Below the pieces are notes generated by a model. The model worked only from the letters and a program-made list of their open reading frames with translations. It had not been told where the DNA came from and made no database searches. From an uncultured Gammaproteobacteria bacterium (lineage in GTDB: Bacteria; Patescibacteriota; Microgenomatia; Curtissbacterales; GWA2-41-24), in the NCBI GenBank assembly GCA_964562855.1, contig CAZLVB010000001.1, positions 3,614-67,613 of the forward strand: a stretch of 64,000 nt of DNA, read 5' to 3'. The position numbers and the translations under genes were made by a program. Below are positions 5,651-54,468 of this stretch, piece by piece; position 1 is the first letter of the stretch, and the number at the start of each line of letters is the position of its first letter.

Positions 5651-5654
5651 CTCG

Positions 5655-13907: not shown

Positions 13908-13979
13908 ATTAGATCTGATTTTAGCATATGGATCATTTTTGCTTGTATAATGAAAATTACTCAGAGGGCAAATTCAATT

Positions 13980-38194: not shown

Positions 38195-39381
38195 TTAAGT
38201 TTTCTGACATGACTCTTTATGACTATCAAAAAAACTGTGATAAAAGCTGGAATAAAAAGAACTGTTTGAATAAAGCCGAGCGTTTGCGGCTGTGACCAGT
38301 CGCCGTAAAAAAGAAAAGGAAGGTAGCGCAAGCTTGCTCCTATAGAAAAGGCCAGAGCAATCGTTATCAATTTTATATTAGGCAAAAGAGCAACTATTGG
38401 GAGGGTCCAAAAAAGATACCACGGCTGGAACTGGACCTGCGTGGCTCCCGACGACACAAAAGGGACACTGATTCTAAATGTGGAGAATACAAAAGTGAAG
38501 ATGGTCATTGTTATCAAGCTTAGCATAACAACCCGTTTGGCTGATCGGCGGAAGAAAATTAACCAGGGTAGATTAAGTATCGATATATATTTAACAAAGA
38601 CCCCTATTAAGAGGGCAACATACGACCCTACAGTCTTTTTAAGAGTCAAAAGATAAATTGGCATTATTATAAAAGTTGCTAGGACGACATCATTGTGAGC
38701 ATTGGCGACGCCTTCGATCAGCAGTAAAGGGTTTAGGGCATAGAACGCTGTACCCAAAAGGACTTTTCCTGGATTTAATTTTTGGAGGATTTTATAAATT
38801 AGATAAGAGTTTACTAGGTGAAAAATACTTATAAAAACCTTGAAGGCAAAAAAATTGAGTAAAAATTTACCAAAACCTAATACTGCCGGGATAAGTGACA
38901 TGCCAAGCCACATTGGGCCATACGGTGAATATCGATGGACCCAGCGCATGAAACGTAACCATTCGTCCTGAGGAAAATCCAAAGGTCGATGAGTATAGGG
39001 ACTGGCATGATAATTGAGAATAATCTTGGCATCAAAAAGATAATTGAAAAGATCGGAAGATAAAAAGGGGTAGGCAAAAATCAAAACAGCAGTATTTGTA
39101 GCTATAGCTAATTTTAAATACTCCTTTGTTGTTTTTTTTCTGTTCAATAACCATAAATTGAATATGAAAAATAAAAAAGCAATTATTATAAACACCAGAT
39201 AGAGAGATGTCGCTAGCGGTCTATTAAAATATCCAAGTTTTTGCATTTGGCTTATAAATGCTAGGACGAGGTGGTTTTGGGATAAAGTAAGATTAAGATC
39301 TACGTAGGCATAAGAAAAAACTGTTACGAGACCGTAAAGTAGTAAGTTTACAAAAAGTAAAAATTTCTCAAAATTTGACAC
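38191..39381 (-). CDS. polytopic membrane protein, possible GT87/DUF2029-like mannosyltransferase
   Basis: 396 aa, about 10 TM helices, HRYSPYGPMW loop motif. The family assignment is tentative. Confidence 0.4.
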   Translation of the reverse strand: MSNFEKFLLFVNLLLYGLVTVFSYAYVDLNLTLSQNHLVLAFISQMQKLGYFNRPLATSLYLVFIIIAFLFFIFNLWLLNRKKTTKEYLKLAIATNTAVLIFAYPFLSSDLFNYLFDAKIILNYHASPYTHRPLDFPQDEWLRFMRWVHRYSPYGPMWLGMSLIPAVLGFGKFLLNFFAFKVFISIFHLVNSYLIYKILQKLNPGKVLLGTAFYALNPLLLIEGVANAHNDVVLATFIIMPIYLLTLKKTVGSYVALLIGVFVKYISILNLPWLIFFRRSAKRVVMLSLITMTIFTFVFSTFRISVPFVSSGATQVQFQPWYLFWTLPIVALLPNIKLITIALAFSIGASLRYLPFLFYGDWSQPQTLGFIQTVLFIPAFITVFLIVIKSHVRKLK

Positions 39382-39402: not shown

Positions 39403-40887
39403 CTATTTTAGAACCTTGATCAACACGTAGTCTTGATGCTCGGCTATAAGTTCATACCTATTTTTCTCAATATTATCCAAGTTGAGTCTCCAGCCTTCAG
39501 TTAATAATAAAAAAGGTTTTTTCCCAAAAGATATAATACCCTTAAGACTGTTTCTTGGAAACGGCTCACCTTGTACATGATAAACTTTTTTCTGTGAATA
39601 AAAGACAGCACCCGGCAGGAAAAATTCATTGTCAAGATATAAGGTTTCTGGCCGCATCCTTGCTGCCGTTGCGGTATACGCTAAACCACTTGTTGATTTA
39701 TCAAAAAGTTTAATCTCGTCTCTAAATTCGTAAATTTGCTTAAGTGATAAAGCCAAAATTAAGCAAATAGTAACTGCAGAAGCGATCGCTGTTTTATTTT
39801 TACGGATAAAAATAACGAATTTTTTAGGCAAAAAGTTTTTATTTAGAGTAACAACTTTTAGGGAGTAAAAAAGTATTTGATAAAGTGAGAATGCAATAAA
39901 AATCCCAAGTATAGGATAAAGGGGGATTAGATGCCAAATTTCTGTTTTTGAATTTGTTAAAAAACCGAATATAAGGATTAAAAACCAAATGTATAGCACA
40001 AAAAGTATCGGGGTTTTAAATAGAAATGCTACTGATCCGACAAGAGCAATTAGGGCGGGATAAAACCATTCTAGAATTCCATAATGCAGATAGACAAAGG
40101 TCAAAGAAGAACCAATCTCTTCAAAATTTGGTTTCACCTTAAACTCTGGTCTTAATCCAACATTTATCAAGTGATTTAAAAAATTCAAGCCGTAAACTTT
40201 GATATTTATAACTAGCCATGGGGCTAAAATTAATGAAAATAAAAAAACCCCTATTAAGGTTCTTTTAATTGGGGCTGATTTATTTTTAATAAACGTAAAG
40301 ATTAATATAATAAGAATCGGAGGTAAAATAGTCAGCCCAATGACTGACTTAGTTAGCAACGAAAAGGCAAAAGATATCGCAAACGGATAGACCCAGTTTA
40401 AGTTGTTTCTTATCTTAACGGCACAATAAAAGGTAAATAAATAAAAAAAGATAAAAACAGTATCTAAATTACCAGATCTTGCCCTTAAGATAAACCAGAC
40501 GGAGGAAAGTAACATTAAAGCCGCACCCATTCCAATGATCCGGTTAAAGAGGTTTTTACCAATAAGATACAAAGTTATAACCGAACCAAATCCCGCCAAT
40601 GCTGAGGGAAAGCGGGCAGCAAAATCTGTCACCCCAAATACTAAAAATGAGATTGCCATTAGCAAAAATGCCAAAGGCGGATGATCTATATATGGTGATT
40701 CGTTAAAATAAAGAATCAGGGGCTGGTAACTTGTTAAAATATTCCTTGCTATCTCTGCGTACCAGGCTTCATCGAAATCAACCAGGCTTGTCGCACCAAG
40801 ATTGTAAAAAAATAAAGGCGAAAAAACCAGAATGGTTATAATGGCGAAAATATCACTTTTGTATTTTTTAAGAAAATTTCTAACCAT
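39403..40887 (-). CDS. ArnT-like (GT83/PMT_2) polyprenyl-phosphate-dependent glycosyltransferase
   Basis: 494 aa; LVDFDEAWYAEIARN is a near-canonical ArnT DExRYAEI motif. Confidence 0.65.
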   Translation of the reverse strand: MVRNFLKKYKSDIFAIITILVFSPLFFYNLGATSLVDFDEAWYAEIARNILTSYQPLILYFNESPYIDHPPLAFLLMAISFLVFGVTDFAARFPSALAGFGSVITLYLIGKNLFNRIIGMGAALMLLSSVWFILRARSGNLDTVFIFFYLFTFYCAVKIRNNLNWVYPFAISFAFSLLTKSVIGLTILPPILIILIFTFIKNKSAPIKRTLIGVFLFSLILAPWLVINIKVYGLNFLNHLINVGLRPEFKVKPNFEEIGSSLTFVYLHYGILEWFYPALIALVGSVAFLFKTPILFVLYIWFLILIFGFLTNSKTEIWHLIPLYPILGIFIAFSLYQILFYSLKVVTLNKNFLPKKFVIFIRKNKTAIASAVTICLILALSLKQIYEFRDEIKLFDKSTSGLAYTATAARMRPETLYLDNEFFLPGAVFYSQKKVYHVQGEPFPRNSLKGIISFGKKPFLLLTEGWRLNLDNIEKNRYELIAEHQDYVLIKVLK

Positions 40888-42311
40888 TAATTAACTTGGT
40901 GAATTTTGACAATTTTAATAAAATGGTCGAATCCAATAGAAACTGTTTTTGCGGGGAAACTTCTTTCGTACTTTATTTTTAAATAATAAGATGGTTCATC
41001 AAATCCAAAAACGTATAAGTTTCCACCCCCCTCTTGTGGCCCCTTCCCCAAGGCTTTGAACAAAAAGGGGTAACCGTTATTAATTGCAAGTGGCAAGCTG
41101 TAATGTACATTAAATGTGTCTTGGGCGGAATCACGGATAACATAGGTGACCGCTTCTTTTTTAATTCTGTAGTTGATTACACTTTTATAATTTATATTAC
41201 TTTTAATATTCATGAATAAAAAAAATGTAATAAATATTAAAAAGATAAGAAAATTTTTTCTGATTACAAAAGAAATAATAATGATAAATGGTAATAAGGA
41301 TTGTAGGAGGTAATAATCTGGAATATGTCCCTTGTAAAACAAGAATCCAAAAACTGGCAAGAATAACCATACAGGAAAAATAAAAAATAGGTTGTTTTTT
41401 TTCTTGAGTAGAAAATAGGTTCCTAATACAACAAGGCACAGAATGAATATCAGGAAAATAGTATTTGCAGATTGAAAAAGATAATTGGCAAAAAACGGCA
41501 GATTTATATTTCTAACAAGATAAATTGATTTATTGAAATAATTTTGAGAACCTGCGTTCTGGCTTATGAATTTTAGAAAATTTTCCCAAAGAATATTATC
41601 GTGCCTAAAATTAAAAATAATTAACGGAAGAAAGTTTAGTAAAAAAGCAGCAACTGCAAGTACAAAATAGAAATAATTTTTCCTTTCTCTTAAGAAAGCC
41701 GTTAAAATAAATGCGACGGCAGAAAAAATGAAAACCGGGTTAAAATTTACGGTAGCAATCCCCGCTATGAAAGCCCCTATTATCAAAAAAATACTTTTCC
41801 TCCTGAAATATTGATAAATCGAGTACATAAGTCCAATTGACGAAAGAAATAAGAAATAATTACTGTTGACTCCCCACTCATACGAAATTTGAGCAAAGGA
41901 TACTGAATAAATAATGGTAGAAATAAGAGCAGTCTTTGCGTCGAAAATGCTTCTTATCACAATATATAGAATTGGAATAGTGATAGTTCCTAAAATGGCG
42001 TAAAAATAAGGAACGCAATCCGGCAGAAGACTGCAAAACTTGTAGGGGATGAATTGAATCCAATTATGCAAAGGTCCAAGGTAAAATCCTTTGAAAGAAA
42101 GCTCTTGCCCTATAAGAGTTACCTTGTGATTTACAAAAAAGTCATATGCGGAATTTGCGGCATACTCCTGATCAAAATCGAAAGGGAATCCCTCACGAAT
42201 TTTGTAAAATCGCAAGAGTGCACCAGCTAAAATAACAAGTAAAAGCGGAATTGCGCCAACGTATCTATTTATAGATGCCCCGAAGGTCATTAAGGCGAAC
42301 TTTGACAACAT
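40887..42311 (-). CDS. polytopic membrane protein, putative GT-C-type (family C paralog)
   Basis: 474 aa; FDFDQEYAANSAYDF...TLIGQELSFKGFYLGPLHNW motif as in 22587..24083 and 44044..45663. Confidence 0.45.
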   Translation of the reverse strand: MLSKFALMTFGASINRYVGAIPLLLVILAGALLRFYKIREGFPFDFDQEYAANSAYDFFVNHKVTLIGQELSFKGFYLGPLHNWIQFIPYKFCSLLPDCVPYFYAILGTITIPILYIVIRSIFDAKTALISTIIYSVSFAQISYEWGVNSNYFLFLSSIGLMYSIYQYFRRKSIFLIIGAFIAGIATVNFNPVFIFSAVAFILTAFLRERKNYFYFVLAVAAFLLNFLPLIIFNFRHDNILWENFLKFISQNAGSQNYFNKSIYLVRNINLPFFANYLFQSANTIFLIFILCLVVLGTYFLLKKKNNLFFIFPVWLFLPVFGFLFYKGHIPDYYLLQSLLPFIIIISFVIRKNFLIFLIFITFFLFMNIKSNINYKSVINYRIKKEAVTYVIRDSAQDTFNVHYSLPLAINNGYPFLFKALGKGPQEGGGNLYVFGFDEPSYYLKIKYERSFPAKTVSIGFDHFIKIVKIHQVN

Positions 42312-43020
42312 CTCTCAGCATTCTTAAAGAGTCTTTTATTGGGCTAACCCTGGTGGTGGCAACATGATGCCAGATAATTGGTACTTCTTTGATTTTATAC
42401 CCGTGTTTTTTAGCAATGAATAATAATTCGACATCGAATGCCGTGACGAGTGCCCCCTTAATTCTCTTCCCCTTGCCATAAACCTTAAGTTTTCCAAATA
42501 ATTCCTTCGCAACATTACTCTTGAAACATTTGAATCCTGCCTGAGTATCCCAAATTCCCCTGACTGCAATAAATTGCACTACAAGATTAAAGACAAGCCC
42601 CATTAAGTGCCTATAAAACGGCTCCTTCTCCCTCTTTGCGCCAGGCAGTTGCCTTGAACCTATGACGATATCGTATTCGGGAAAATGAGGCAAGAGTTTT
42701 TCAATCTCTGAAATCGGTGTGGCTTGGTCAAAGTCGGTAAAAAGAACAAATTCTCCTTTTGCAGCGAGTACTCCAGTTTTGACAGTTTCGGCCTTACCTT
42801 GGTGAGGATTTTTAATTAAACGAAAGTTTTTGTATTTTTTGACAAATTTTTCTGCCAATTGCGAAGTTTTATCCTCAGAACCATCATCAATTATTATTGC
42901 TTCATAAGAATAATTCTGTTGATCAAGATACTGCGGAACTTGCGCCAGAAGCCCTTTTTCAAAATTTGGCTCTTCGTTATAGGCGGGAATAACAACAGAA
43001 AGGAAGATTTTGTCTGGCAT
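42265..43020 (-). CDS. GT2 polyprenyl-phosphate sugar synthase-like glycosyltransferase
   Basis: LSVVIPAYNEEPNF...IIIDDGSEDKT...FTDFDQ motifs; 251 aa. Confidence 0.7.
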   Translation of the reverse strand: MPDKIFLSVVIPAYNEEPNFEKGLLAQVPQYLDQQNYSYEAIIIDDGSEDKTSQLAEKFVKKYKNFRLIKNPHQGKAETVKTGVLAAKGEFVLFTDFDQATPISEIEKLLPHFPEYDIVIGSRQLPGAKREKEPFYRHLMGLVFNLVVQFIAVRGIWDTQAGFKCFKSNVAKELFGKLKVYGKGKRIKGALVTAFDVELLFIAKKHGYKIKEVPIIWHHVATTRVSPIKDSLRMLRDVVKVRLNDLRGIYK

Positions 43021-43117: not shown

Positions 43118-44026
43118 CTATGCGTTGTCAAAAAGCATTTTTAGAAGTGCCATTCTGACGAAGACTCCGTTATGAGCTTGTTCGAAATAAAGGGCTCTGG
43201 GATCCGAATCTACTTCTTGGCTTATTTCATCAACGCGCGGTAGAGGGTGAAGTATTAACGCGGTTTTTTTAATATATTTTAGAGCTTTTTTGTCTAAAAT
43301 ATATTTACCTGAATATTTTTTGTAATCTTCGCCTAAGTATTCTTTAGGGATTCTAGTTTGATAAATTACGTCTGCTTTCTTAATTGCTTCTAAGTAATCT
43401 TCGGTTTCGGAAAATCGAACTTTTTTGGCGCTAAAATATTTTCTGAAATCGGTTGGGATACGTAAAGATTTCGGTGAAACGAAAATAATATTGACACTCG
43501 GATAATTTGCCAATAAATAGGAAAGAGAATGCACAGACCTGTAAACGGACAGTGCTCCTGCCATAGCTATGGTAAACCTGGGATTTTTGACTTTGGAAAA
43601 GATAGTGTATAGATCCAGCAACGCTTGAGTCGGATGCTCTCCGCCTCCGTCGCCCGCATTAATGACTGGCACGGTAGAATAGCTAGCCGCCAAGCGGGCC
43701 GAACCGATTTTTGGATGCCTAATTACTATAACATCGCAATAATCATCTACGATCCTTATGGTATCCTCGAGAGTTTCTCCTTTAATCGCTGATGAGAATT
43801 CCTTAGCGTTTTCTGTTGATATAGTTGACCCGCCTAATTTGATCATTGCCGATTCGAAAGAAAATCTAGTCCTGGTTGATGGTTCGTAAAAAAGCGTGGC
43901 CATTATTTTTTTGTTTAGAAAATTCTGATTGTATTTCCCATTCTGGATTTCGTCTGCAATTTTAAAAAGCTTAGTCACCGTATCTTTATCAAATTGCTGT
44001 GCCGAAATTATGTGTTTAATTCTCAT
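43118..44026 (-). CDS. pyrB: aspartate carbamoyltransferase catalytic subunit
   Basis: 302 aa; STRTRFSFESAM carbamoyl-phosphate binding motif and HPLPRVDEI aspartate-domain motif. Confidence 0.85.
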   Translation of the reverse strand: MRIKHIISAQQFDKDTVTKLFKIADEIQNGKYNQNFLNKKIMATLFYEPSTRTRFSFESAMIKLGGSTISTENAKEFSSAIKGETLEDTIRIVDDYCDVIVIRHPKIGSARLAASYSTVPVINAGDGGGEHPTQALLDLYTIFSKVKNPRFTIAMAGALSVYRSVHSLSYLLANYPSVNIIFVSPKSLRIPTDFRKYFSAKKVRFSETEDYLEAIKKADVIYQTRIPKEYLGEDYKKYSGKYILDKKALKYIKKTALILHPLPRVDEISQEVDSDPRALYFEQAHNGVFVRMALLKMLFDNA

Positions 44027-44043
44027 AGTCTGATTATACTGCT

Positions 44044-45663
44044 TTATCCACCTTTAACTGCCGGTTTCCCAGCGGGATTGGGTGCCCCTGGCCAGTGAGT
44101 AAGCTTAAAAACCTTAATGCCGATTTCGGGTAAGTCCCATTCACCGACTATTTGCGCTCTTCCGAACCCGGCAATTTCCCAAATGGGATGTCCAAGTGGC
44201 GCACATGTTCTAGTTTCACAAACTACCAAAAGTTGCTCCGTTACTAATGTTTCAAGCTCGGTTGGACGAAATCCTTTTATTTCTAGAAAATACCTATATG
44301 CATGATCGCTATTGTGATCGGCAATCAGCGCAAAATTAAAAGGCTTATCTTCGCTTATTTTTGTCACAAAACCGGAAACGGTTGATGTTTGTTCAATTAA
44401 TCTATTTGGAGGGTATCTAAAAAGACCATTTGAAACAAAATATGCAACTGTTATGGCAGTTAAAATAAATGTAAAACTTCTAAAAAAAATGTTCTTCCAG
44501 AAAACACTAATAACTAAACCAAATAACAGAAAGGGTGCGGGGAACATAAATCCGAAGTAGTAATCAAAAAGCTGGCCAGCATAAAGCCTCGCACCCAGTA
44601 AGCCCCCCAAAAACCAGATGATACCTATGGAAAAAATTAGTTTTTTCTCACTAAATTTCCAATTTTTGGCCAGTCCATATATTCCTCCAACTGCCAAAAA
44701 CCAGTAAAATATCTTCGTGATAATTGTTTTATTGAGCTCTGATATGAATTCCAATAAGATATTACCGGTATTTGAGGCTTGCCAAACCAAATTTATCCTT
44801 TTGTAGCCAACAGTTGATCCCCGAGTTATAAATTCCCAGATTGTTTTAAAGTTAGGAAAATTATTTTTAATTTCGAACAATAAAAATGGCAAAACGGTGA
44901 CAATTGCTCCCGCTAACCCAGCAGCAAGATAAATGGGCCATTTTTTAAAACTAACATTAAAAAACAACACTAAGGTTGAAAGTAAAAATAAAACTGTTGC
45001 TAAATAGTGAAGCTGGATAGCGATGCCAAAGCACGCACCGGCAAGAAGAAAATAGATGACTTTTTTCTTTTGGATGCCTTTATAGAGAAAATAGAATAAG
45101 AGAAGCGCAAAAAATGGTAATGGGTTGGGATTCCAGGAAGATCTTGAATACCTAACAATAAGCGGGGCTGTTGCGTATAAAAAGCCGGCAAGAATTGCCG
45201 GCCAATAGCCCGCAGTTTCTGCAAGAAACTTAAAAAGTAAGAGCACGGTTAAGGCGCCAAATGCCGCCACCATGTATGAGGGTCCTACCGGGTCATATCG
45301 CCATAAATATAAGAATGGTGCGCCCATCCAATAATAAATTGGGCCAAGGTAGAAACCGCCTACAGAGGCAGTTGGACCTAAAAACGTTGGCCTTTTTTCC
45401 ATTATCATCTTTCTCATAACTAGCATATCTCTCCCCTCGTCTCCCAAAAAAACAACATAATCTCTAACCTTCCAAAATCGGAAGAACATGGCAGTTAAAA
45501 TTAAAATCAAAAAAATAATGAATTTTATTTTCGAATCCGCGAAACCACTGCTTCCCGCTCGGGGATGAAGTGGATGAGAAAACATCCTCCAAAGTCGACT
45601 GGTAAGTGAAGATGTCATATTTTTAAATTTTCCAAACTTCATGGGATGCTCCCTGGATTGCAA
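44044..45663 (-). CDS. polytopic membrane protein, putative GT-C-type (family C paralog)
   Basis: 539 aa; FLGDEGRDMLVMRKMIMEKRPTFLGPTASVGGFYLGPIYYW. Confidence 0.45.
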   Translation of the reverse strand: MQSREHPMKFGKFKNMTSSLTSRLWRMFSHPLHPRAGSSGFADSKIKFIIFLILILTAMFFRFWKVRDYVVFLGDEGRDMLVMRKMIMEKRPTFLGPTASVGGFYLGPIYYWMGAPFLYLWRYDPVGPSYMVAAFGALTVLLLFKFLAETAGYWPAILAGFLYATAPLIVRYSRSSWNPNPLPFFALLLFYFLYKGIQKKKVIYFLLAGACFGIAIQLHYLATVLFLLSTLVLFFNVSFKKWPIYLAAGLAGAIVTVLPFLLFEIKNNFPNFKTIWEFITRGSTVGYKRINLVWQASNTGNILLEFISELNKTIITKIFYWFLAVGGIYGLAKNWKFSEKKLIFSIGIIWFLGGLLGARLYAGQLFDYYFGFMFPAPFLLFGLVISVFWKNIFFRSFTFILTAITVAYFVSNGLFRYPPNRLIEQTSTVSGFVTKISEDKPFNFALIADHNSDHAYRYFLEIKGFRPTELETLVTEQLLVVCETRTCAPLGHPIWEIAGFGRAQIVGEWDLPEIGIKVFKLTHWPGAPNPAGKPAVKGG

Positions 45664-46851
45664 TTAAGATTCTTTCCAGATCAGCAGCGTATTTAAAAGA
45701 TAGTTTGCGAATAATCCGATAATTACTCCTACTGCCAAGCCGATTTGCTCATGAAGAGAAAGAACTCTGGCAAAAAATAAGATAGAAGTGAGCTGAATTA
45801 GTGGGCTGGCAAAGGATGTCGCATTAAATTTAAGAAACCTTAAAAAAATGGAGCCGTCGCGCGAACGATGTTTAAATGTCCAATTATCGTGAAACAGAAA
45901 GTTCAAAATTATAGATAGCTCGATAGAAACTATTGACGAAACTAAAAGCCTATCAAGAGTAACTGAAAATACTTTAGGTGCATGCTCGAAGCTGGGAATA
46001 AAGCTGAATAGAGGTTTTGCCAGTATTGGCAAGAAATAAATCTCTCCCCTGTTGAAAATTCCCAGCGTTATAGCATTTGTTAAATAACTTGCCACACCGA
46101 CTGTCAAAAATTTAAAGAAGGTTCTTGAACGTTCAATTCTAACCCTAATGCCAAATTTCAAAACATCCAAGGTGTAGGCAATAATTTTGGCTTTTGAATA
46201 GCCCCTTTTGCGGTCTTCGAAAGTTATAGGTATTTCTTTAATCTTTGCGCCAGCTTTGATAGCAGCATATAAAAAAGCCGGTTGAATTATGTAAGTTTTA
46301 GCCCTCCATGGAACTTTTGAAAAATCGATTTTTTCGAATAATGTTTTAGTAAAAACTCTGTAGGAATTTGTATATTCAGATAAATTAAACGTACCCCAAC
46401 TAAATTTACAATAGAGAGCAGAACCCCTTGTAAAGAGTCTCCTGTGCCATCCCAGTCGATTCTTACCACCTTTTGTGAGCCTTGAACCGTTTACTAAATC
46501 GAAACCTTTTTTTATGTATTCAACCATTTTAGGTAGCGATGCTGGGTCATGTGACAGGTCTCCATCCATTTGAGCAAGTACATCGGCTTTGAGTCTGTCA
46601 ATTGAATAACGATGTCCCTTGACGATGCCTACACCCAACCCTTTTTGTTTCACATCCAGGTAGTGCACTTTTGGATTTATTTTGGAGATTCTTTTTACAG
46701 TTTCTGCAGTACCGTCAAGAGAGTGACTGTCAGAAACTAAAACGTGCAGATCGAAATCCGGCAGTAATTTGGAAGCTTGGAGAATTTTTTTTATTACTTC
46801 TTCTATATTCTCTCCCTCGTTATAGGTAGGGACATTGACCACAAGTCTCAT
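45664..46851 (-). CDS. GT2 polyprenyl-phosphate glycosyltransferase fused to a C-terminal GtrA-like membrane domain
   Basis: 395 aa; the N-terminal 230 aa form a GT2 body ([13 protein letters not shown]...DGDLSHD); the C-terminal about 130 aa contain four TM helices of GtrA type ([20 protein letters not shown]). Confidence 0.65.
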
Positions 46852-47825
46852 CTGGAATTTTTCTTGAGGAGGTCTATATCTGCCTCGACCATTATCTTGA
46901 CAAGATCTTTAAAGGTAACTTGAGGCTGCCAACCCAAAATTTTGCGCGCTTTTGTGGAATCACCGATAAGAAAATCGACTTCGGCTGGTCTGAATAATTC
47001 CCGGGAAACTTTTACATATTTTTTCCAATTTTTTACGCCAATTACCTCAAAAGCCTCTTGGCAGAATTGGGCAACGGAGTGATTTTCCCCAGTTGCTATA
47101 ACAAAATCATCTGGAAGCTTTTGCTGGAGCATCATCCACATAGCCTTCACGTAATCTCCGGCAAAACCCCAGTCACGTTTGGCATCCAAATTCCCGAGTA
47201 CAATATGATCGGAAAGCCCTAGAAATATTCTGGCAACACCGTGGGATATCTTTCTGGTAACAAATTCTAAACCCCTCCTTGGCGATTCATGATTGAAAAG
47301 AATGCCGCTTACCGTAAACAAATCATATGATTCTCTGTAATTAATGGTGATCCAATGCGCATATACTTTTGCCACACCATAGGGGCTTCTTGGATGAAAT
47401 GGCGTCTTTTCATTCTGTGGTGATTCTTTAACCATCCCGAACATTTCAGATGAAGAGGCCTGGTAAAATCTGGCATCAGGCTTTACTTGCCGTAGGGCTT
47501 CGAGCATTCTGGTTGCACCCAAAGCGGTAAATTCCCCCGTAAGAACTGGTTGTGACCATGAAGTTGCGACAAAGCTTTGAGCTGCCAGATTATAGACCTC
47601 ATCGGGCATTGATTCAGACAGAGCCGAAGTTAACGACTGCTGATCTAAAAGATCACCCGGGATGAGAGTTATTCTATCCTCGATATGTTTAATTCTTTCG
47701 TAATTTGGCGTTGAGGTTCGTCTTGTCAGACCGAATACTTTATAATTTTTTGACAGCAAGAACTCTGCCAGATAAGATCCGTCCTGGCCTGTTATTCCCG
47801 TGATTAATGCTTTTTTTTGTGCCAT
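46848..47825 (-). CDS. gmd: GDP-mannose 4,6-dehydratase
   Basis: 325 aa; [33 protein letters not shown] and [12 protein letters not shown] canonical Gmd motifs. Confidence 0.85.
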
Positions 47826-47828
47826 TTT

Positions 47829-48824
47829 TTAATTTCTTGCGCTTTTTCGTTCAAACTCAATTGTATCAGATAAGGTTTTTTCTATTGGAATTTCTGGTAT
47901 CCATCCTGTTTGCTTTCTAAATTTTTCGAAATTGCAATACACTTTTTTTATTTCAATCGGCCTGAATAAATTTTTATTAACTCTTATTTTAATTTTTACT
48001 TTCGAAAATAATATCAGTTTTTTAAGAATATCAGCAATTTTGTAAGCTTTTTGCGAACCCAGATTATAAACTTCGCCGGGTTTACCAATTTCAGCGGCTA
48101 AGAAGTAGGCTCTGACCATGTCTCGCACATCGGTGAAGTCTCGCCAAACATCCAGATTGCCAACCTCTATTGTCCCGCCGTTATTTTTTTCAAGTGCCGC
48201 AATTTGTTCAGCAAACGCTGGTACAACAAAGTGGGGTGCTTGTCTGGGTCCGATGTGATTAAAAGGCCTAACTCTTACAATCTTTAGTTTACTTTGTAAG
48301 AAATACTGGAGGCCTAACATGTCCTGGGCTACTTTTGATACGGCATAGGGGGAAACTGGCGCAATGGGAGCATTTTCATCCACAGGTAAATGCTTGGCAT
48401 CTATATTCCCATATTCTTCCGAAGAACCAATAACCAAAATCTTTGCTTTGGGATTGGTTTCTTTTACGGCATTAAGTAAATATATCTGCGGAAAAATATT
48501 ATTGGCAAGAGTTTTTTTGGGAGTTTTAAAGCTTTCGGCTGCCGAAGAAACCGCAGCCAAATGAAAAACGTAATCCGGCTTAATATCTAAAACGTGATCT
48601 CTTACCTCTTTTTTTTTAAGTATGTTGCATGGTGACAAGTTAAGTTTGTGCTCAATGTGGGCAAGATTTTTAATTGAGTGATCGGGATGAAAGAATCCAA
48701 AAATTGTAAATTTTTTGGCAAGAAGGTATTCGGCAAGATGACTGCCGGCAAAACCAGCAATACCTGTGATAAGAACCTTCTTCGAAGAACCTTGATTCCT
48801 GACGGAATTTAAAGCTTTTTTCAT
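47829..48824 (-). CDS. rmd: GDP-4-dehydro-6-deoxy-D-mannose reductase (GDP-D-rhamnose synthase, Rmd-like)
   Basis: 331 aa SDR enzyme; VLITGIAGFAGSHLAEYLL, VRVRPFNHIGPRQ, DVWRDFTDVRDM and YNLGSQ align with characterised Rmd motifs. Lies immediately downstream of gmd. Confidence 0.7.
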   Translation of the reverse strand: MKKALNSVRNQGSSKKVLITGIAGFAGSHLAEYLLAKKFTIFGFFHPDHSIKNLAHIEHKLNLSPCNILKKKEVRDHVLDIKPDYVFHLAAVSSAAESFKTPKKTLANNIFPQIYLLNAVKETNPKAKILVIGSSEEYGNIDAKHLPVDENAPIAPVSPYAVSKVAQDMLGLQYFLQSKLKIVRVRPFNHIGPRQAPHFVVPAFAEQIAALEKNNGGTIEVGNLDVWRDFTDVRDMVRAYFLAAEIGKPGEVYNLGSQKAYKIADILKKLILFSKVKIKIRVNKNLFRPIEIKKVYCNFEKFRKQTGWIPEIPIEKTLSDTIEFERKSARN

Positions 48825-50125
48825 CGGCCGATTCCCACATATTTAAATCCTAATTGTTTTACCTTATCTATAACGAAAAAATTGCGGCCATCTATAATAA
48901 TCGGTGTTTTTAGGAGCCTTTTAACAAGTCTTAGATCCAGTTCTTTAAATTCAGACCATTCTGTAATCAAAACCAGTGCGTCACAGCCCGAAAGGGCACT
49001 GTAGGCGTCTTTTGCGAATTTGATATTTGGCAAAATCCTTCTGGTGTTTTCCATGGCTTGTGGATCATAGGCGGTTATTTTCGCCTTTAGATCCAAAAGG
49101 TGTTTGATAATTTTGATTGCCGGTGCTTCCCTGATATCATCTGTGTTTGCTTTAAAAGCCAGTCCCAAAACAGCCAATCTTTTGCCTTCCAGATTTTTTC
49201 TTTTGCCTTCAGGCGCATCAAGGGCGTTTCTAATCTTGGTGATAAATTTAAGAATTTGATTCTCGTTAATGGCATCTACCGCCCTTAGAAGTGCCAAGTC
49301 GTAGCCGAAAAACTGACCGATTGAAATAAAAGCCAAGACGTCTTTAGGCAGACAAGAGCCACCATAACCTACACCGGGATATAAGAAAGAGCGCCCGATG
49401 CGCTTGTCTTGCCCTACTCCTTCCAGCACTTTTTCGACATCCGCGCCGACCTTTTCGCAGAGATTTGCAATATCGTTTGCAAAGGAAACTTTCGTGGCCA
49501 GGAGTGCGTTTGATGCGTATTTAATTAATTGAGCGCTGCGCATGTCACAGATAATACGATTTCCGGAAATCGGCGCGTGCAATTCCAAAAGCATCCTTTG
49601 AGCCTTCTTGCTTGCAGAGCCGATAACAATCCTGTCTGGATTGAGCGTGTCTTCAATAGCTGTTCCTTCTCTTAAAAACTCAGGCGACGAGGCAAATTCA
49701 AATTTACTTTTGGCATATTTTTTGGCAGTTTGTTCAAGATCATCCTCGAAACCGATTGGAATGGTACTTTTTATGGTAATCAGAGTATATCCGGCAAGAT
49801 TTTTAGCCGTTTCTTCGACCGCTGAAAAGAGATATGAAAGATCCGCCTCTCCGTTATTTTTCGGAGGTGTTCCGACACAAATAAAAACTATTTTGGATTT
49901 CGGGACGGATTGGCTATAACTTGTAGTGAAAAGGAGTCTTTTTGCGTTTATATTTCTTTTGACATAATCTGCAAGTTGCGGTTCAAAAAAAGGTATTTTG
50001 GCTTTTTTTAGATTTTCAACTCTCTTTTTATCAATGTCGACACAATAAACCTTATTTCCTAAATCCGAAAAAATAGCTGCGGTGACTAATCCAACATAAC
50101 CAGCGCCGACTACTGTCAGAGTCAT
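48821..50125 (-). CDS. ugd: UDP-glucose 6-dehydrogenase
   Basis: 434 aa; MTLTVVGAGYVGLVTAAIF Rossmann motif; catalytic GGSCLPKD. Confidence 0.8.
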   Translation of the reverse strand: MTLTVVGAGYVGLVTAAIFSDLGNKVYCVDIDKKRVENLKKAKIPFFEPQLADYVKRNINAKRLLFTTSYSQSVPKSKIVFICVGTPPKNNGEADLSYLFSAVEETAKNLAGYTLITIKSTIPIGFEDDLEQTAKKYAKSKFEFASSPEFLREGTAIEDTLNPDRIVIGSASKKAQRMLLELHAPISGNRIICDMRSAQLIKYASNALLATKVSFANDIANLCEKVGADVEKVLEGVGQDKRIGRSFLYPGVGYGGSCLPKDVLAFISIGQFFGYDLALLRAVDAINENQILKFITKIRNALDAPEGKRKNLEGKRLAVLGLAFKANTDDIREAPAIKIIKHLLDLKAKITAYDPQAMENTRRILPNIKFAKDAYSALSGCDALVLITEWSEFKELDLRLVKRLLKTPIIIDGRNFFVIDKVKQLGFKYVGIGR

Positions 50126-50172: not shown

Positions 50173-51069
50173 CTATAGTAATTTTCCGCTTGACTGTTCA
50201 TATATGGTCTTTATTCCCTGCTCCCAATCGGTGGGTGTAAAGCCTAACTTTTTGATTCTCCCTGTTTTTAAGCCGCCATTAATTGGCCGTGGGGCCGGAA
50301 GTTTCGTTGTCAATATGGAGCCTTTCTTAACGGTTTGCGAATCACCGCCGAATTTATCTATTAGAGATTTTGCGAAATCGTATGGAGTTGTTATTCCGGG
50401 ACTTGCTATGTGGAAAATTCCTGATTCATTTTGGTCTAATATTAATTTGGTTGCAGGAGCAAGATCATCGATGAACGTGGGTGTGAAAAACTGGTCAGAA
50501 AACATCGGGAACAAACTTTTTTGGCGATATTTTCTTAAAATTGCCTTCGCAAAATCATCCTTATTTTGGAATCTTCCTCTATAAGGATAGGCGATCCTGA
50601 TAATAATAAAGTCCAGAAGCATCCTTTCAGTCTGCTTCTCCCCCTCCATTTTTGTGATACCGTACCAAGAAATTTTACTAATGTTTTTGGCTGGTGGGTC
50701 TTTCTCATTGTATGGTCCGCTTGTGCCGTCGAATACAAAATCTGTGGATATAGATATTAATTGTCTTTTAAATTTCCGTGCAGATTCCGCAACATTTTTT
50801 ACTCCTGCTACATTGATTTTCCAACAAAGGGCACTCTTGTCACCTCGCTGCTTTTCCGCTTCGTCGACATCGGTGAAGGCGGAAAATAAAATTAGAGCTT
50901 GAAAATTGTTACTCGAAAAAAAATTATTTACTGATTTTTGATCTGTTATATCTACGGGCCATTGACTATGCAGATCTGCCTCTATTATCTCGAAATTTTG
51001 GCGAGACAGCTGGCAAAATCTCGACCCAACCATCGATGAAGAACCAATAACCGCCAGGGTCGTTTTCAT
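50173..51069 (-). CDS. rfbD: dTDP-4-dehydrorhamnose reductase
   Basis: SISTDFVFDG motif. The ORF track extends to 51132, but an ATGA start/stop overlap with rfbB at 51066-51069 and the MKTTLAVIGSSSMVG Rossmann N-terminus favour a start at 51069. Confidence 0.7.
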   Translation of the reverse strand: MKTTLAVIGSSSMVGSRFCQLSRQNFEIIEADLHSQWPVDITDQKSVNNFFSSNNFQALILFSAFTDVDEAEKQRGDKSALCWKINVAGVKNVAESARKFKRQLISISTDFVFDGTSGPYNEKDPPAKNISKISWYGITKMEGEKQTERMLLDFIIIRIAYPYRGRFQNKDDFAKAILRKYRQKSLFPMFSDQFFTPTFIDDLAPATKLILDQNESGIFHIASPGITTPYDFAKSLIDKFGGDSQTVKKGSILTTKLPAPRPINGGLKTGRIKKLGFTPTDWEQGIKTIYEQSSGKLL

Positions 51070-52076
51070 CTTGTAACATATTGTTTTTGATAATAGTCCT
51101 GAAATGATCTGTCCTTGAGCTTTTTCCACCAATTCTCATTATTTTTATACCATTCAACGGTTAATCTTAGTGCTTTATCGAAATCATATTTTTGTGACCA
51201 TCCAAGTTCTTTCTTTATTTTTGAAGCGTCTATAGCATATCGTCTATCGTGACCCGGACGGTCTTTAACGTATTCAATCATCTTCTTATCTTGACCTAAA
51301 ACTTCTAAGATTTTTTTTACGACCTCTAAGTTGGCAATATCACTATCAGTTCCGATAAGATAAGTTTCTCCAACTTTACCTTTTTGTAAAACTGTCTCGA
51401 TGGCGCGTGCGTGATCTTCGACATAAAGCCAGTCGCGCACGTACAAGCCATCCCCATAAACAGGAACTTTTTTGCCTTCCAAAATATTGGTGATTGCCAG
51501 CGATATTAGTTTTTCCGGATATTGATACGGACCAAAGTTGTCCGCACAGTTTGTGATTGTAATCGGCAAACCAAAAGTAACATAGTAGGCCCTGACTAAA
51601 TGATCTGCTGCGGCCTTAGAAGCAGAATAGGGGCTTCTTGGGTTGTAAGGAGTATCTTCTGTAAATCTTTGAGCTGATTCCAGCTCTAAAGCACCAAAAA
51701 CTTCATCGGTGGAAATGTGATGAAAGCGTTCAACTTTTTCTTTATATGCAGCTTCAAGCAAAACTTGTGTGCCCAAAACATTGGTTTTGACAAATATTGA
51801 AGGGTCCATAATTGATCTGTCTACATGACTTTCGGCGGCAAAATGGACAACTATATTAACATTCTTCATCGCTTCTTTGACTATCTGGGCATTGCAGATA
51901 TCGCCTTTTATAAAAGTGTAATTTGGACTTTTTTCGACATCGGCGAGATTCTCTAAATTACCGGCGTATGTCAAGACATCTAAATTAACGATTTCATCAT
52001 CAGGATGATTTTCCAGCCAGTAGTGGATGAAGTTGGAGCCGATGAAGCCGGCCCCCCCAGTAACAAGTAACTTCAT
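51066..52076 (-). CDS. rfbB: dTDP-glucose 4,6-dehydratase
   Basis: 336 aa; MKLLVTGGAGFIGSNFIHYWL and YSASKAA motifs. Confidence 0.85.
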   Translation of the reverse strand: MKLLVTGGAGFIGSNFIHYWLENHPDDEIVNLDVLTYAGNLENLADVEKSPNYTFIKGDICNAQIVKEAMKNVNIVVHFAAESHVDRSIMDPSIFVKTNVLGTQVLLEAAYKEKVERFHHISTDEVFGALELESAQRFTEDTPYNPRSPYSASKAAADHLVRAYYVTFGLPITITNCADNFGPYQYPEKLISLAITNILEGKKVPVYGDGLYVRDWLYVEDHARAIETVLQKGKVGETYLIGTDSDIANLEVVKKILEVLGQDKKMIEYVKDRPGHDRRYAIDASKIKKELGWSQKYDFDKALRLTVEWYKNNENWWKKLKDRSFQDYYQKQYVTR

Positions 52077-52804
52077 TTTTCTTTCCTGATCTCTTCGGCT
52101 ACCTGAAGGTTGGCACGCAGTAGCTCATCAAACGAAGTTCCGGCATCAACCCACCAAGTATTGAGCATTTTGCAAATCATTGTTCCTTCAGAAACATAAA
52201 AATTATTAAGATCGGTGACTTCCAACTCTCCTCTGCCAGATGGTTTTTGCTTTTTAATAAAATCAAAAACCCGCCCGTCATACATATAGATTCCTGTCTG
52301 GCCTATGTCGCTTTTAGGCTTTTGCGGCTTCTCTTCAATCGAAACCACTTTGCCACCTTTAACCTCTATTACGCCATATTGCTTACTGGCAGTAGACATG
52401 TGTTTACCGTAAACAACGGCACCTTTTTCTACTTTTTCAAATTCCTCAACATCTTTTTGAAGCGACTGGGTAAAAATGTTGTCACCAAGAATTACCAGTA
52501 GTTTACCTGTATCTGCAAAATCTTGCGCTAAATTTATTGCCTGGGCAATGCCTCCTGCATCTTCCTGAATTTCGTAAGAGAGTTTAAGACCAAAGTCCTT
52601 GCCGGATCTTAATAGATTAATAAAAGCTCCGCTGTGGCTAGGGCCGGTAATTACAAGTACGTCCCTGATGCCCGCTTTAGCCATCGCCTCGAGCGGATAA
52701 AAAATCATCGGCTTGTTATAAATTGGGAGAAGATGCTTATTGGTAACCCAAGTCAAGGGACGAAGACGGGTAGCATTGCCGCCAGCTAAAATAACGCCTT
52801 TCAT
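52073..52804 (-). CDS. rfbA: glucose-1-phosphate thymidylyltransferase (short-form sugar nucleotidyltransferase)
   Basis: 243 aa; MKGVILAGGNATRLRPLT is the G-x-G-T-R-L pyrophosphorylase motif. Sits in an operon with rfbB and rfbD. Confidence 0.7.
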   Translation of the reverse strand: MKGVILAGGNATRLRPLTWVTNKHLLPIYNKPMIFYPLEAMAKAGIRDVLVITGPSHSGAFINLLRSGKDFGLKLSYEIQEDAGGIAQAINLAQDFADTGKLLVILGDNIFTQSLQKDVEEFEKVEKGAVVYGKHMSTASKQYGVIEVKGGKVVSIEEKPQKPKSDIGQTGIYMYDGRVFDFIKKQKPSGRGELEVTDLNNFYVSEGTMICKMLNTWWVDAGTSFDELLRANLQVAEEIRKEK

Positions 52805-52807
52805 TAT

Positions 52808-52846
52808 ATTTATTTGCTAATTATACAAGAGAAAAGACTGTCTCTT
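52808..52846 (-). promoter_or_regulatory. TTGTATAAT -10 box 16 nt upstream of the rfbA ATG, directly preceded by a 6-bp stem hairpin (AAGAGA-aaagactg-TCTCTT, 52827-52846)
   Basis: Minus strand: aagagacagtcttttctcTTGTATAATtagcaaataaatataaATG. Confidence 0.4.
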
Positions 52847-52859
52847 CAAAATTGGACCT

Positions 52860-53549
52860 TTAAACTTCAACAAGCACCGAGATTGGTAGATGATCAGAAG
52901 CTCTTGAGTTTTCAACATCGAAAGAGCTTGTTTTTAGATCTTTTGTCGTAAATATGTAGTCTAACCTCGTATCGACAGACTGAGGATTACATACCATACA
53001 TCCGGCAGGGTAAATACTCCAGGTCGGTTGTGATAAAGGATCTGAATCATTAAGAACTTTTTTAACTTTTTTTATAACTTTACTTTGAGGTGTCGCGTTA
53101 AAATCACCCATCAAGATTGCATTTTTGTTTGGTATATGTTTAAGGAGATTTATTACTTGTTCATCTTGCTCGTCCAAATGTTTTTGATGAGTGTGGATAA
53201 GATGTGTGCTAAATATATGCAGCGCTTTATCCTCAAACTGAATGTCAGCCCTAATAGCTGCCCGAGGATTGTTCTTTGAGAGGATATAGGTTTCGGTTTC
53301 AAAAATTTTGTATTTACTAAAGATTGCTGGCCCATCGTTATATACTTTTCCACGCCAAGTATGCTCAACTGGCGCAAAAATATGATAATAGCTCAATTTC
53401 TCAAGGGAACTGACGATATTTCTTTTAGGATCATCAGGCACTACTTCCTGTAAACCAATTATGTCTGCATTTGATGTTTTTAGAAAATCAACAACTTGAT
53501 CGAATTTTCCATTAATCCAGATATTCCAGGAAAGAATTTTCAGCTGCAT
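52860..53549 (-). CDS. endonuclease/exonuclease/phosphatase (EEP) family protein
   Basis: 229 aa; ILSWNIWINGKF...IGLQEV N-terminal EEP motif; C-terminal SDHLP. Confidence 0.6.
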   Translation of the reverse strand: MQLKILSWNIWINGKFDQVVDFLKTSNADIIGLQEVVPDDPKRNIVSSLEKLSYYHIFAPVEHTWRGKVYNDGPAIFSKYKIFETETYILSKNNPRAAIRADIQFEDKALHIFSTHLIHTHQKHLDEQDEQVINLLKHIPNKNAILMGDFNATPQSKVIKKVKKVLNDSDPLSQPTWSIYPAGCMVCNPQSVDTRLDYIFTTKDLKTSSFDVENSRASDHLPISVLVEV

Positions 53550-53559
53550 AGTTAAGCTT

Positions 53560-54468
53560 TCATTTCCGATAAAAATCGATTGTTCTTTTCAAGCCCTCGG
53601 TAAGATCTACTTTGGCTTTCCAGCCGACAGCTTTTTGGAGTTTTTTACTTGAGGCATAATTGGCGGCAACATCACCGGGCCTTTTTCCAAGATCATCAAT
53701 CGGGACCTTATAGCCGACGATTTCGAAAATCTGATCAACTACATCTTTTACTTTAATACCTTTTTCGGTTCCAATATTAAATATGTTAAATCCCGAAAGA
53801 TTCAAAACGTCTATATGAGCTTGTGCCAAATCTTCGATATAAATGAAATCGCGTATTTGTTCTCCCTGCCAGTAAAGTGGGATCGATTTTTTGGCAAGTG
53901 CCCCTTTGATGAAATTTGGGATGGCATGTGTTTCCGGTACATGCCGTTCTCCTGGACCGTATGGATTGAAATAACGCAAAATTATCGTATCGATCCCGTA
54001 AACTGTGTTAAAAGACTGTAAGAACGACTCGATTGACGCTTTACAGGCACCGTATGGATTGTCCGGTCTGACTGGCGCATCTTCTGTGATTGGCAATTTA
54101 TCGGGAGTTCCATAAACACAGGCGCTTGATGAAAAGATAATCTTTTTGACACCAACGTCTCTCATACTTTCCAAGAGCGAGACAGTGCCTATTACGTTAT
54201 TGTTGCAGTAGCCTATCGGGTCTTCGACCGATTCGGGAACGATGATGAGTCCCGCCATATGAATGACAGCATCTATACCCTTAAGCGCCTGTTTTGTCTT
54301 TTTTCCATCCCCTATGTCAGCAATTTGCAGTTTTGCACGTTTATCCACAAGATCTTTGTACCCCCTTTTAAGGTTATCCAAGACGACAACGTCGTGGCCT
54401 TTATCAAGAAGCAATCTTGTTACATAAGAGCCGATAAAGCCAGCACCACCGGTAACTAGAACTCGCAT
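53560..54468 (-). CDS. galE: UDP-glucose 4-epimerase
   Basis: 302 aa; MRVLVTGGAGFIGSYV, SSACVYG and YGACK motifs. Confidence 0.75.
   Translation of the reverse strand: MRVLVTGGAGFIGSYVTRLLLDKGHDVVVLDNLKRGYKDLVDKRAKLQIADIGDGKKTKQALKGIDAVIHMAGLIIVPESVEDPIGYCNNNVIGTVSLLESMRDVGVKKIIFSSSACVYGTPDKLPITEDAPVRPDNPYGACKASIESFLQSFNTVYGIDTIILRYFNPYGPGERHVPETHAIPNFIKGALAKKSIPLYWQGEQIRDFIYIEDLAQAHIDVLNLSGFNIFNIGTEKGIKVKDVVDQIFEIVGYKVPIDDLGKRPGDVAANYASSKKLQKAVGWKAKVDLTEGLKRTIDFYRK

Follow-up and report, generated by a model that had tools for sequence, protein, structure and literature searches.

The locus examined here raises the question whether a bacterial synthase of lipid-linked sugars, fused in one chain to a membrane domain of the GtrA type, makes up, together with the glycosyltransferases encoded around it, a pathway for glycosylation outside the cytoplasm. 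The gene is an open reading frame (ORF) of 395 amino acids (aa) that runs from ATG to TAA on the minus strand, at positions 45664..46851 of a 64,000-nucleotide stretch (hereafter the window) of contig CAZLVB010000001.1 (GenBank assembly GCA_964562855.1), which comes from a bacterium of the candidate phyla radiation (CPR; Curtissbacteria). An earlier interpretation of this DNA, made from the letters alone (the sequence-only reading), had described its product as a GtrB/CsbB-like enzyme of glycosyltransferase family 2 (GT2) joined to a GtrA-like domain and flanked by glycosyltransferases of the GT-C fold. Based on alignments and structure prediction, we estimate at about 0.7 the probability that the protein is a single-chain polyprenyl-phosphate glycosyltransferase built like the archaeal type-III dolichyl-phosphate mannose synthases (DPMS), such as that of Pyrococcus furiosus (PfDPMS).

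Domain architecture of the GT2-GtrA protein

The ORF and its parts, with transmembrane (TM) helices numbered TMH1 to TMH4, are as follows.

45664..46851, minus strand: complete ORF (395 aa), with a DPMS-like GT2 joined to a GtrA/DPMS four-helix domain
46195..46851, minus strand: GT2 catalytic domain (GT-A fold), residues 1-219, with the PF00535 match; residues 1-266 align with PfDPMS 1-255
46543..46566, minus strand: DxD (metal-diphosphate) motif, D96-G-D98-L-S100-H101-D-P103, aligned with PfDPMS 89-DADLQHPP-96
46126..46194, minus strand: residues 220-242, a predicted amphipathic interface helix that links the catalytic domain to the TM domain; aligns with the region of PfDPMS interface helix 2 (IFH2)
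46051..46125, minus strand: TMH1, residues 243-267, with N259 (aligned with the polar-pocket Asn248 of PfDPMS)
45952..46050, minus strand: insert between TMH1 and TMH2, residues 268-300, 33 aa, predicted to be extracytoplasmic with short beta strands
45676..45948, minus strand: PF04138 match, residues 302-392, covering TMH2-TMH4 with N317, N383 and an NFxxxxxWTF motif

Pfam recognises two domains. Residues 7-174 match PF00535 (Glycos_transf_2) with 77.9 bits against a cut-off of 23.3 (E 1.1e-21), and residues 302-392 match PF04138 (GtrA_DPMS_TM; profile positions 28-117 of 117) with 56 bits against a cut-off of 26.1 (E 5.6e-15). Both scores exceed their curated cut-offs and lie far beyond what chance would give. 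The PF00535 match together with the DxD motif places the protein in family GT2, and the similarity to PF04138, on which the sequence-only reading had made its GtrA assignment depend, is present. This match takes in TMH2-4 only, TMH1 being recognised through its alignment with TMH1 of PfDPMS, and the NFxxxxxWTF motif of the GtrA/DPMS domain lies in TMH2.

An AlphaFold2 (AF2) model built from 31 orthologs (mean local confidence, pLDDT, 85.7; predicted template modelling score, pTM, 0.76) consists of a GT-A domain followed by an interface helix (220-241) and TM helices at 243-267, 301-325, 335-363 and 368-391. The loop at 326-334 is basic (three Lys/Arg), which fits a cytoplasmic location, and the model and the sequence together give four helices with both termini in the cytoplasm, that is, the topology of GtrA and DPMS. 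The membrane domain is therefore of the predicted type and has the four helices foreseen, but it measures about 150 aa instead of the roughly 130 first proposed. The exact 395-aa sequence is also present in NCBI/Logan (P0001).

Relationship to type-III DPMS

Among all PDB sequences the best match of the whole protein is PfDPMS (5MLZ, E 4.9e-32), which aligns in two stretches that together run from end to end (residues 1-266 with PfDPMS 1-255 and 305-392 with 265-350), although the two proteins share only about 26% identity overall. The matches to ArnC (about 3e-6) and GtrB (4e-4) are confined to the N-terminal half. Foldseek searches with the AF2 model gave the same ranking, with 5MLZ, 9EP0 and 5MM1 at the top over the full length (E 7e-22, TM-score 0.63/0.69), followed by ArnC and GtrB. 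Thus, the assignment of the N-terminal half to GT2 holds, but the catalytic domain is DPMS-like and not specifically GtrB/CsbB-like (E 5e-32 for PfDPMS). GtrB, CsbB and ArnC have two C-terminal TM helices, form tetramers and carry a DADLQ motif, whereas the present protein has four GtrA-type helices and reads DGDLS.

PfDPMS (5MLZ, 5MM0, 5MM1, 9EP0; PMC5526996, PMC12992685) likewise combines in one chain a GT2 domain, interface helices and four GtrA-type TM helices, and because its TM domain is itself GtrA-like (PMC5526996, PMC12992685) the fusion described here is a known architecture. PF04138 already bears the Pfam name 'GtrA/DPMS transmembrane domain', so that the fusion is not new, and the orthologs are annotated by JGI as dolichol-phosphate mannosyltransferase. 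The two enzymes differ in host, a hyperthermophilic archaeon against a CPR bacterium of about 38% G+C that is presumably mesophilic, and in lipid, dolichyl phosphate against what is presumably undecaprenyl phosphate. In its strict sense (Gandini et al. 2026) type-III DPMS is a monomeric enzyme that uses GDP-mannose and dolichyl phosphate and carries, among other defining residues, the motif DADxQHPP (x = L, F or Y); it has been reported from archaea only and is found in organisms that are all hyperthermophiles (PMC12992685). With DGDLSHDP at this place, the protein falls by sequence outside the rigorous definition of those authors and is a bacterial variation on the theme. What is added here is a CPR family that alignment sets beside type-III DPMS with the polar pocket kept, together with the DGDLSHDP variant, a 33-aa insert on the outer face, and a cassette of GDP-6-deoxyhexose genes, synthase and GT-C in which triple fusions occur naturally.

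A HMMER search of 1.84 billion representatives yielded 16,513 matches at E<=1e-3. Among the best 150 of these, 82 are 340-430 aa long and most align over both domains; these are the relatives counted below. The best 120 homologs listed all combine GT2 with PF04138, those with a name belong to Candidatus Curtissbacteria (Microgenomates, CPR), and one named distant relative comes from candidate division WWE3. Thirty orthologs, 68-83% identical, were aligned with the protein.

Both DxD aspartates of PfDPMS are present (D96-x-D98 in 81-82 of the 82 relatives), and D96, D98, L99, S100 and H101 are invariant in the orthologs. PfDPMS Asp89 and His94, which contact the 2- and 3-OH of mannose, correspond to D96 and H101 here, and the GT2 domain retains the guanine loop KxGLG (KxGLGxA) in its DPM1-like form. 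The ligands of the lipid phosphate, Arg117, Arg131 and Ser135, align with R124, R137 and T141, and the two arginines have equivalents in all 82 relatives. The SRY context of Arg117 reads S123-R124-L, the Tyr being replaced by Leu. A further ligand of the lipid phosphate in PfDPMS, Lys178 (KIL), pairs with R183 in the HMMER alignment, whereas MAFFT puts gaps around it. Since the conserved Arg117 also binds the phosphate and the alignment of Lys178 is unreliable, the donor is not deducible from residues around the mannose 6-OH.

In the membrane domain, the polar-pocket residues Asn248, Asn277 and Arg341 of PfDPMS align with N259, N317 and N383, an alignment that would bring the three asparagines close together in a membrane pocket. 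The position of Arg341 is Asn in all type-III enzymes outside the Thermococcales, and in PfDPMS these residues line the site where 'flipped' dolichyl-phosphate mannose (Dol-P-Man) was seen in 9EP0 (PMC12992685). Asn is found at the three positions in 49 (plus 17 with Gln), 64 and 66 of the relatives, respectively; in the orthologs N317 is invariant and N259 is kept in at least 90%.

A lineage-specific departure from PfDPMS is the loop between TMH1 and TMH2, which has 4 aa in the archaeal enzyme and 4-5 aa in 51 of the 82 relatives but 33 aa (residues 268-300) here. The insert is modelled with good confidence (pLDDT about 85-90) as short strands on the outer face, and its column identity (0.61) is the lowest of all segments, although R268, G269, P280, D300, R301 and L302 are invariant.

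Conserved gene order and natural fusions

The genes immediately around the GT2-GtrA gene, all on the same strand, are the following.

48821..50125, minus strand: NDP-sugar 6-dehydrogenase (UDP-glucose dehydrogenase-like, ugd), overlapping the start of the rmd-like gene
47829..48824, minus strand: Rmd-like short-chain dehydrogenase/reductase (SDR; GDP-4-keto-6-deoxy-D-mannose reductase family), best PDB matches 2PK3 and 6X3B
46848..47825, minus strand: gmd, GDP-mannose 4,6-dehydratase (TIGR01472, 437 bits, cut-off 415)
44044..45642, minus strand: GT-C glycosyltransferase (PMT_2, PF13231, 42.4 bits; predicted ArnT-like fold), directly downstream of the GT2-GtrA gene

In 24 species-representative genomes with loci of the Curtissbacteria type the order ugd, rmd, gmd, GT2-GtrA, GT-C, pyrB, short GT2, GT-Cs, YfhO is kept as far as the contigs reach into the flanks. 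All 22 loci with an upstream flank have gmd directly upstream of the GT2-GtrA gene, 21 of them with an Rmd-like reductase upstream of gmd, and a GT-C gene lies directly downstream in 20 out of 20 loci with a downstream flank. The cassette also recurs (L026, L037, L042, L047 and L056, for example) among 80 distant metagenomic loci, whose relatives are 26-46% identical to the query P0123, itself 46% identical to the protein studied here; in these a GT-C or TM-rich protein is encoded directly downstream in 14 of 27 cases.

The same partners are found joined in single chains among the representatives. P0147 (851 aa) contains GT2, GtrA and PMT_2 in one chain, P0142 and P0214 (717 and 696 aa) join GT2 to PMT_2, and P0173 (995 aa) is GT2, GtrA and DUF6798, a fusion which suggests that DUF6798 proteins belong to the same pathway.

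The GT-C gene directly downstream was the flanking transferase expected by the sequence-only reading, though with a different start. Its longest ORF (44044..45663) begins with TTG at 45663, immediately after the upstream stop codon, whereas ATG 45642, which gives 532 aa, is preceded at 6 nt by a Shine-Dalgarno sequence (AGGGAG) and is chosen by two independent gene calls; it is the most likely start. The real N-terminus may be shorter still, as the orthologs are about 500 aa long. An AF2 model of this protein (pLDDT 79, pTM 0.81) has a GT-C fold whose top Foldseek match is ArnT with undecaprenyl phosphate (5F15, E 1.4e-8, TM-score 0.58), followed by the oligosaccharyltransferases OST (STT3)/AglB/PglB, ALG12 and Pmt4, and an invariant FLGDEGRD motif lies in loop 1 after TM1. 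The C-terminal extracytoplasmic domain carries two invariant cysteines (C475 and C480) and an NSDHAYRY motif.

The conserved order, its recurrence in distant loci, the Rosetta-stone fusions and the predicted fold of the GT-C protein together argue that synthase, GtrA module and GT-C are a functional unit. A polyprenyl-phosphate-sugar synthase, a GtrA module and a GT-C are encoded together here, as had been claimed of a three-component pathway, and the earlier interpretation is in substance supported, the GT2-GtrA gene itself being a well supported but largely ordinary finding.

Proposed pathway and sugar donor

We propose that the GT2 domain would move a GDP-activated, mannose-configured sugar onto polyprenyl phosphate at the cytoplasmic face, the enzyme being held in the membrane by its amphipathic interface helices and the fused four-helix GtrA/DPMS domain. 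The lipid-linked monosaccharide would then cross the membrane, possibly aided by the Asn-lined pocket of the fused domain, and the adjacent ArnT-like GT-C (44044..45642) would pass the sugar outside the cell to an envelope acceptor, probably a cell-envelope polymer or protein. Other GT-C and YfhO enzymes encoded in the window might use the same lipid-linked sugar.

A GDP-activated, mannose-configured hexose is suggested as donor by the KxGLG loop and by the Gmd and Rmd genes, which are conserved and translationally coupled. The stop codon of gmd overlaps the start codon of the GT2-GtrA gene as ATGA, and the Rmd-like protein matches 2PK3 (E 1.3e-69) and 6X3B (E 5.7e-44) over its full length, while no NCBIfam equivalog was reached for it. 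In characterised systems, from which the functions of the homologs 2PK3 and 6X3B are known, Gmd and Rmd together convert GDP-mannose to GDP-D-rhamnose. Given this conserved coupling, GDP-D-rhamnose or another GDP-6-deoxyhexose is our tentative first choice, at rather less than even odds; GDP-mannose, favoured by homology, comes close behind, and the replacement of Asp39 and Gln93 by Ser leaves room for another nucleotide sugar, which we regard as a lesser but real possibility. No description of a polyprenyl-monophosphate-rhamnose donor was found in the literature, which is weak evidence as the search was incomplete. An alternative function of the upstream SDR, as a UXS/ArnA-like decarboxylase that with ugd would point to the Arn pathway, was rejected, UXS enzymes matching it at only about 1e-16 against 1e-69 for Rmd structures.

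Several observations weigh against the proposed pathway. In the motif DGDLSHDP, as compared with DADxQHPP, Ala is replaced by Gly, the metal ligand Gln by Ser and Pro by Asp, and the guanine-contacting Asp39 of PfDPMS aligns with Ser42; with Ser at both positions GDP specificity is not secure, and Ser is the majority state at the metal-ligand position of the full-length relatives (55 of 82). The gating residue Phe338, at which Tyr is tolerated, aligns with L380, next to an invariant F381, and in most relatives the residue that precedes the pocket Asn is Trp. Among the distant loci, a Gmd, Rmd or SDR gene lies directly upstream in only 10 of 31, and in the window itself Gmd and Rmd could instead supply cytoplasmic glycosyltransferases. 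Direct evidence that GtrA proteins are flippases is generally lacking (PMC11127046), a Wzx/MOP-type flippase gene is recognised by Pfam at 25033..26508, and our choice of donor, lipid and acceptor draws on homology and context.

The most serious competitor is a classical polyprenyl-phosphate mannose synthase that uses GDP-mannose and feeds PMT-like GT-Cs for the mannosylation of proteins or glycans, as Ppm1 and Pmt do in Actinobacteria, the adjacency of gmd then reflecting nothing but a shared pool of GDP-mannose. The nearest solved relative is indeed a Dol-P-Man synthase, the sugar contacts D96/H101 and the DPM1-like KGLG loop are present, the neighbouring proteins match PMT and PMT_2 and one of them weakly MptA, and the JGI label of the orthologs says the same. 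Against these agreements stand the ATGA overlap with gmd and the Rmd-like gene upstream of it, which are kept in loci of the Curtissbacteria type and in several other lineages, as well as the alteration of both the DADxQHPP motif and the guanine-binding Asp39. We consider a mannose synthase of this kind a credible alternative to a 6-deoxyhexose (perhaps 6-deoxy-mannose) synthase, with a chance of roughly one in three.

Membrane domain and its possible role in translocating the lipid-linked sugar

Which proteins flip Dol-P-Man and undecaprenyl-phosphate sugars (Und-P-sugars) has been asked for decades, and in 2026 work on PfDPMS the GtrA-like domain of type-III DPMS was proposed as the flipper (PMC12992685). 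For PfDPMS, flipping by this domain is proposed and not proven (PMC12992685), and the literature offers no proof for the assignment of GtrA as flippase (PMC11127046, PMC12992685), so that the flipping step in our pathway can be put forward only conditionally.

In the 31 orthologs mean column identity is 0.85 for the catalytic domain and 0.75-0.82 for the TM helices, which are unusually polar and rich in invariant polar residues. Conservation of this degree, together with the invariant polar residues, exceeds what would be required of a simple anchor. The fused domain may therefore help to translocate the lipid-linked product through the conserved polar pocket formed by N259, N317 and N383, a suggestion from comparative analysis to which we give even odds.

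That the four helices are nothing but a membrane anchor and a platform for the lipid acceptor, with flipping left to the Wzx/MOP protein or to an unrecognised scramblase, is the next explanation to be weighed. It agrees with the full catalytic activity that PfDPMS retains without its TM domain or with a mutated pocket, and with the support that TMD2 gives to the dolichol chain (PMC12992685); the flippase role of GtrA has moreover been challenged for Rv3789 besides being unproven, and a candidate flippase of the MOP family is at hand in the window. In type-I DPMS, by contrast, one helix suffices for anchoring (PMC5526996), whereas here four helices, which bear numerous invariant polar residues with the Asn triad among them, are conserved almost like the catalytic core. 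The natural fusions of GT2, GtrA and GT-C place the GtrA domain between synthase and transferase. The normal cargo of MOP/Wzx flippases, furthermore, is oligosaccharides linked to undecaprenyl diphosphate (Und-PP). On balance we judge a pure anchor less likely than not, and assistance in flipping stays our preferred role for the domain.

The large CPR family, with its common architecture, kept pocket, constrained TM domain and linkage or fusion to GT-C, thus offers comparative support for a unit of synthesis, translocation and transfer, and it would provide presumably mesophilic proteins for flipping assays. The boldest version of this proposal, that the family both makes polyprenyl-phosphate D-rhamnose and itself flips it, handing the sugar, perhaps via the 33-aa insert, to a dedicated ArnT-like GT-C, while its GtrA domain might also serve GT2 enzymes that lack TM helices, seems to us improbable as a whole; if true, an Asn-lined pocket would be a general solution of bacteria and archaea for the crossing of polyprenyl-phosphate monosaccharides.

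No other PF04138 domain was found in Pfam scans of 50 non-nested ORFs of at least 100 aa, six ORFs downstream of 54.4 kb excepted, and a literature search on GtrA in CPR/Patescibacteria found nothing relevant. In Lactococcus a single GtrA protein serves several pairs of GT-A and GT-C enzymes (PMC8035078). Because of this precedent, and because only one GtrA domain was detected, we speculate that it may also serve the TM-less DPMS-like GT2 encoded at 42265..43020. A standalone GtrA candidate, the ORF 5655..6230 (minus strand), which encodes 191 aa with four predicted TM segments inside an array of GT-C genes, was rejected, being without similarity to the GtrA domain of the GT2-GtrA protein and without a Pfam or NCBIfam match.

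Comparison with known three-component systems

The locus resembles the GtrA-GtrB-Gtr* and CsbB-GtcA-YfhO systems (PMC8035078, PMC7389260, PMC11127046) in its presumed logic, by which a GT2 would make a polyprenyl-phosphate monosaccharide inside, a GtrA-type module would be involved in translocation and a GT-C would transfer the sugar outside, and also in the clustering of the genes. In those systems GtrA is a separate small protein, the synthase is of the GtrB/CsbB type and the donor is a UDP-sugar, whereas here the GtrA domain is fused to a DPMS-like synthase, the donor is probably a GDP-sugar, and one GtrA domain is found beside about 20 GT-C-like and about 5 DPMS-like GT2 genes. A GtrB/CsbB-type enzyme that would turn a UDP-sugar (Glc, GlcNAc or Gal) into an Und-P-sugar for the decoration of wall polymers by YfhO or GT-C proteins is the weakest alternative and very doubtful to us, since the top NCBIfam match to PgfS (61 bits, far under the cut-off of 500), the Ser in place of the guanine-specific Asp39, the ugd-like and GalE-like genes nearby and the YfhO genes are set against a similarity to GtrB and ArnC at least 26 orders of magnitude weaker than that to PfDPMS, a four-helix GtrA-type domain in place of two C-terminal helices and tetramers, and a DPM1-like KxGLGxA loop.

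In the ArnC, ArnE-ArnF, ArnT pathway a GT2 is likewise followed by a GT-C of the ArnT fold, of which 5F15 is the best match of the adjacent GT-C, and nucleotide-sugar enzymes, including a ugd-like one, are encoded in the operon. ArnC is, however, only distantly similar, the ArnE/F flippase is separate and SMR-like, homologs of ArnA, ArnB and ArnD are absent here, and the upstream SDR is Rmd-like and not ArnA/UXS-like.

The sequence-only reading had also pointed to the D1/D2 organisation of mycobacterial Ppm1, in which a DPM1-type polyprenyl-phosphate mannose synthase domain is joined to a membrane domain. In Ppm1 the D1 membrane domain is N-terminal and of the apolipoprotein N-acyltransferase type (CN-hydrolase, Lnt-like), while the present one is C-terminal and of the GtrA/DPMS type, and Pfam detected neither a CN-hydrolase nor an Lnt domain in the 395-aa protein. 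The Ppm1 comparison is therefore rejected, and type-III DPMS is the right comparator.

Other glycosyltransferases and nucleotide-sugar genes of the island

The window is a dense, almost wholly minus-strand gene array of about 38% G+C, at least 52 kb of which is filled by a glycan-biosynthesis island. This contains 11 genes with PMT_2 or PMT matches above the Pfam cut-off and two just below it, two YfhO genes, five further large multi-TM proteins, five DPMS-like GT2 genes, of which only the GT2-GtrA gene has a TM domain, other GT2 and GT4 genes, UppP/BacA and many nucleotide-sugar enzymes. For annotation, the locus indicates that lipid-linked monosaccharides, a 6-deoxyhexose possibly among them, would supply the unusually large GT-C arsenal of Curtissbacteria. 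The genes nearest to the cassette, and a second YfhO gene, are the following.

42265..43020, minus strand: short TM-less DPMS-like GT2, 251 aa, best PDB match PfDPMS (E 1.2e-16)
40887..42311, minus strand: GT-C candidate, PMT_2 28.2 bits (cut-off 26.1), about 10 TM segments
39403..40887, minus strand: GT-C candidate, PMT_2 71 bits and PMT 46 bits, weak NCBIfam matches to ArnT and Pmt
38191..39381, minus strand: 10-TM protein of 396 aa, weakly MptA-like, syntenic in most related loci
35780..38194, minus strand: YfhO-family GT-C, PF09586 88.4 bits
16894..19221, minus strand: second YfhO-family GT-C, 77 bits, paralog of 35780..38194 (31% identity)

The ArnT-like gene at 39403..40887 and both YfhO-like genes were named as further transferases of the pathway in the sequence-only reading, and their Pfam matches bear this out. 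The product of 42265..43020 covers positions 3-211 of 213 of an NCBIfam dolichyl-phosphate hexose transferase profile and is syntenic, and it is possibly a second polyprenyl-phosphate glycosyltransferase without a membrane domain of its own. Three further short GT2 genes without a TM domain, 31055..31852, 63254..63937 and 15199..16020, encode proteins that are, like it, within 227-273 aa in length; these three are paralogs of the catalytic domain of the GT2-GtrA protein, and 42265..43020 is in turn a paralog of theirs. Pairs of a short GT2 followed by a GT-C recur in the distant loci. The 10-TM protein matches NCBIfam TIGR03459 with E 1.3e-10 (40.8 bits, far under the cut-off of 439) and has no Pfam match; the family concerned, alpha-(1->6)-mannopyranosyltransferase A (MptA), depends on polyprenyl-phosphate mannose.

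At 838..12814 (minus strand) eight back-to-back genes encode seven large multi-TM proteins (495-572 aa) and the 191-aa ORF mentioned above. Six of the seven match PMT_2 or PMT, and the genes starting at 838, 4037, 6217, 7809 and 9415 are paralogs (32-37% identity); the region is a tandemly amplified GT-C array. The genes 11096..12814, 26484..28226 and 34100..35710 (minus strand) form another set of paralogs (29-32% identity, 536-580 aa, 10-11 TM segments), of which only 34100..35710 has a Pfam match (PF10131, PTPS_related membrane protein), and they probably represent another GT-C-like family.

Upstream of the cassette, 50173..54468 (minus strand) contains genes resembling RmlD, RmlB and RmlA together with a GalE gene, but none of the ORFs scanned was recognised as RmlC. 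Across genomes the RmlA-like orthologs fall into two identity classes (83-89% and 42-49%), a split suggesting that this position is taken by two different nucleotidyltransferases.

An aspartate carbamoyltransferase-like gene (43118..44026, minus strand; OTCace_N and OTCace) lies in the middle of the cassette and is kept at that place in at least 17 loci of the Curtissbacteria type; an amidohydrolase gene that could be dihydroorotase-like (12840..13907, minus strand) is also in the island. The only convincing plus-strand gene of the window, 13950..15209, encodes a protein of 419 aa with about nine TM segments and no Pfam match, which might be Wzy or O-antigen-ligase-like.

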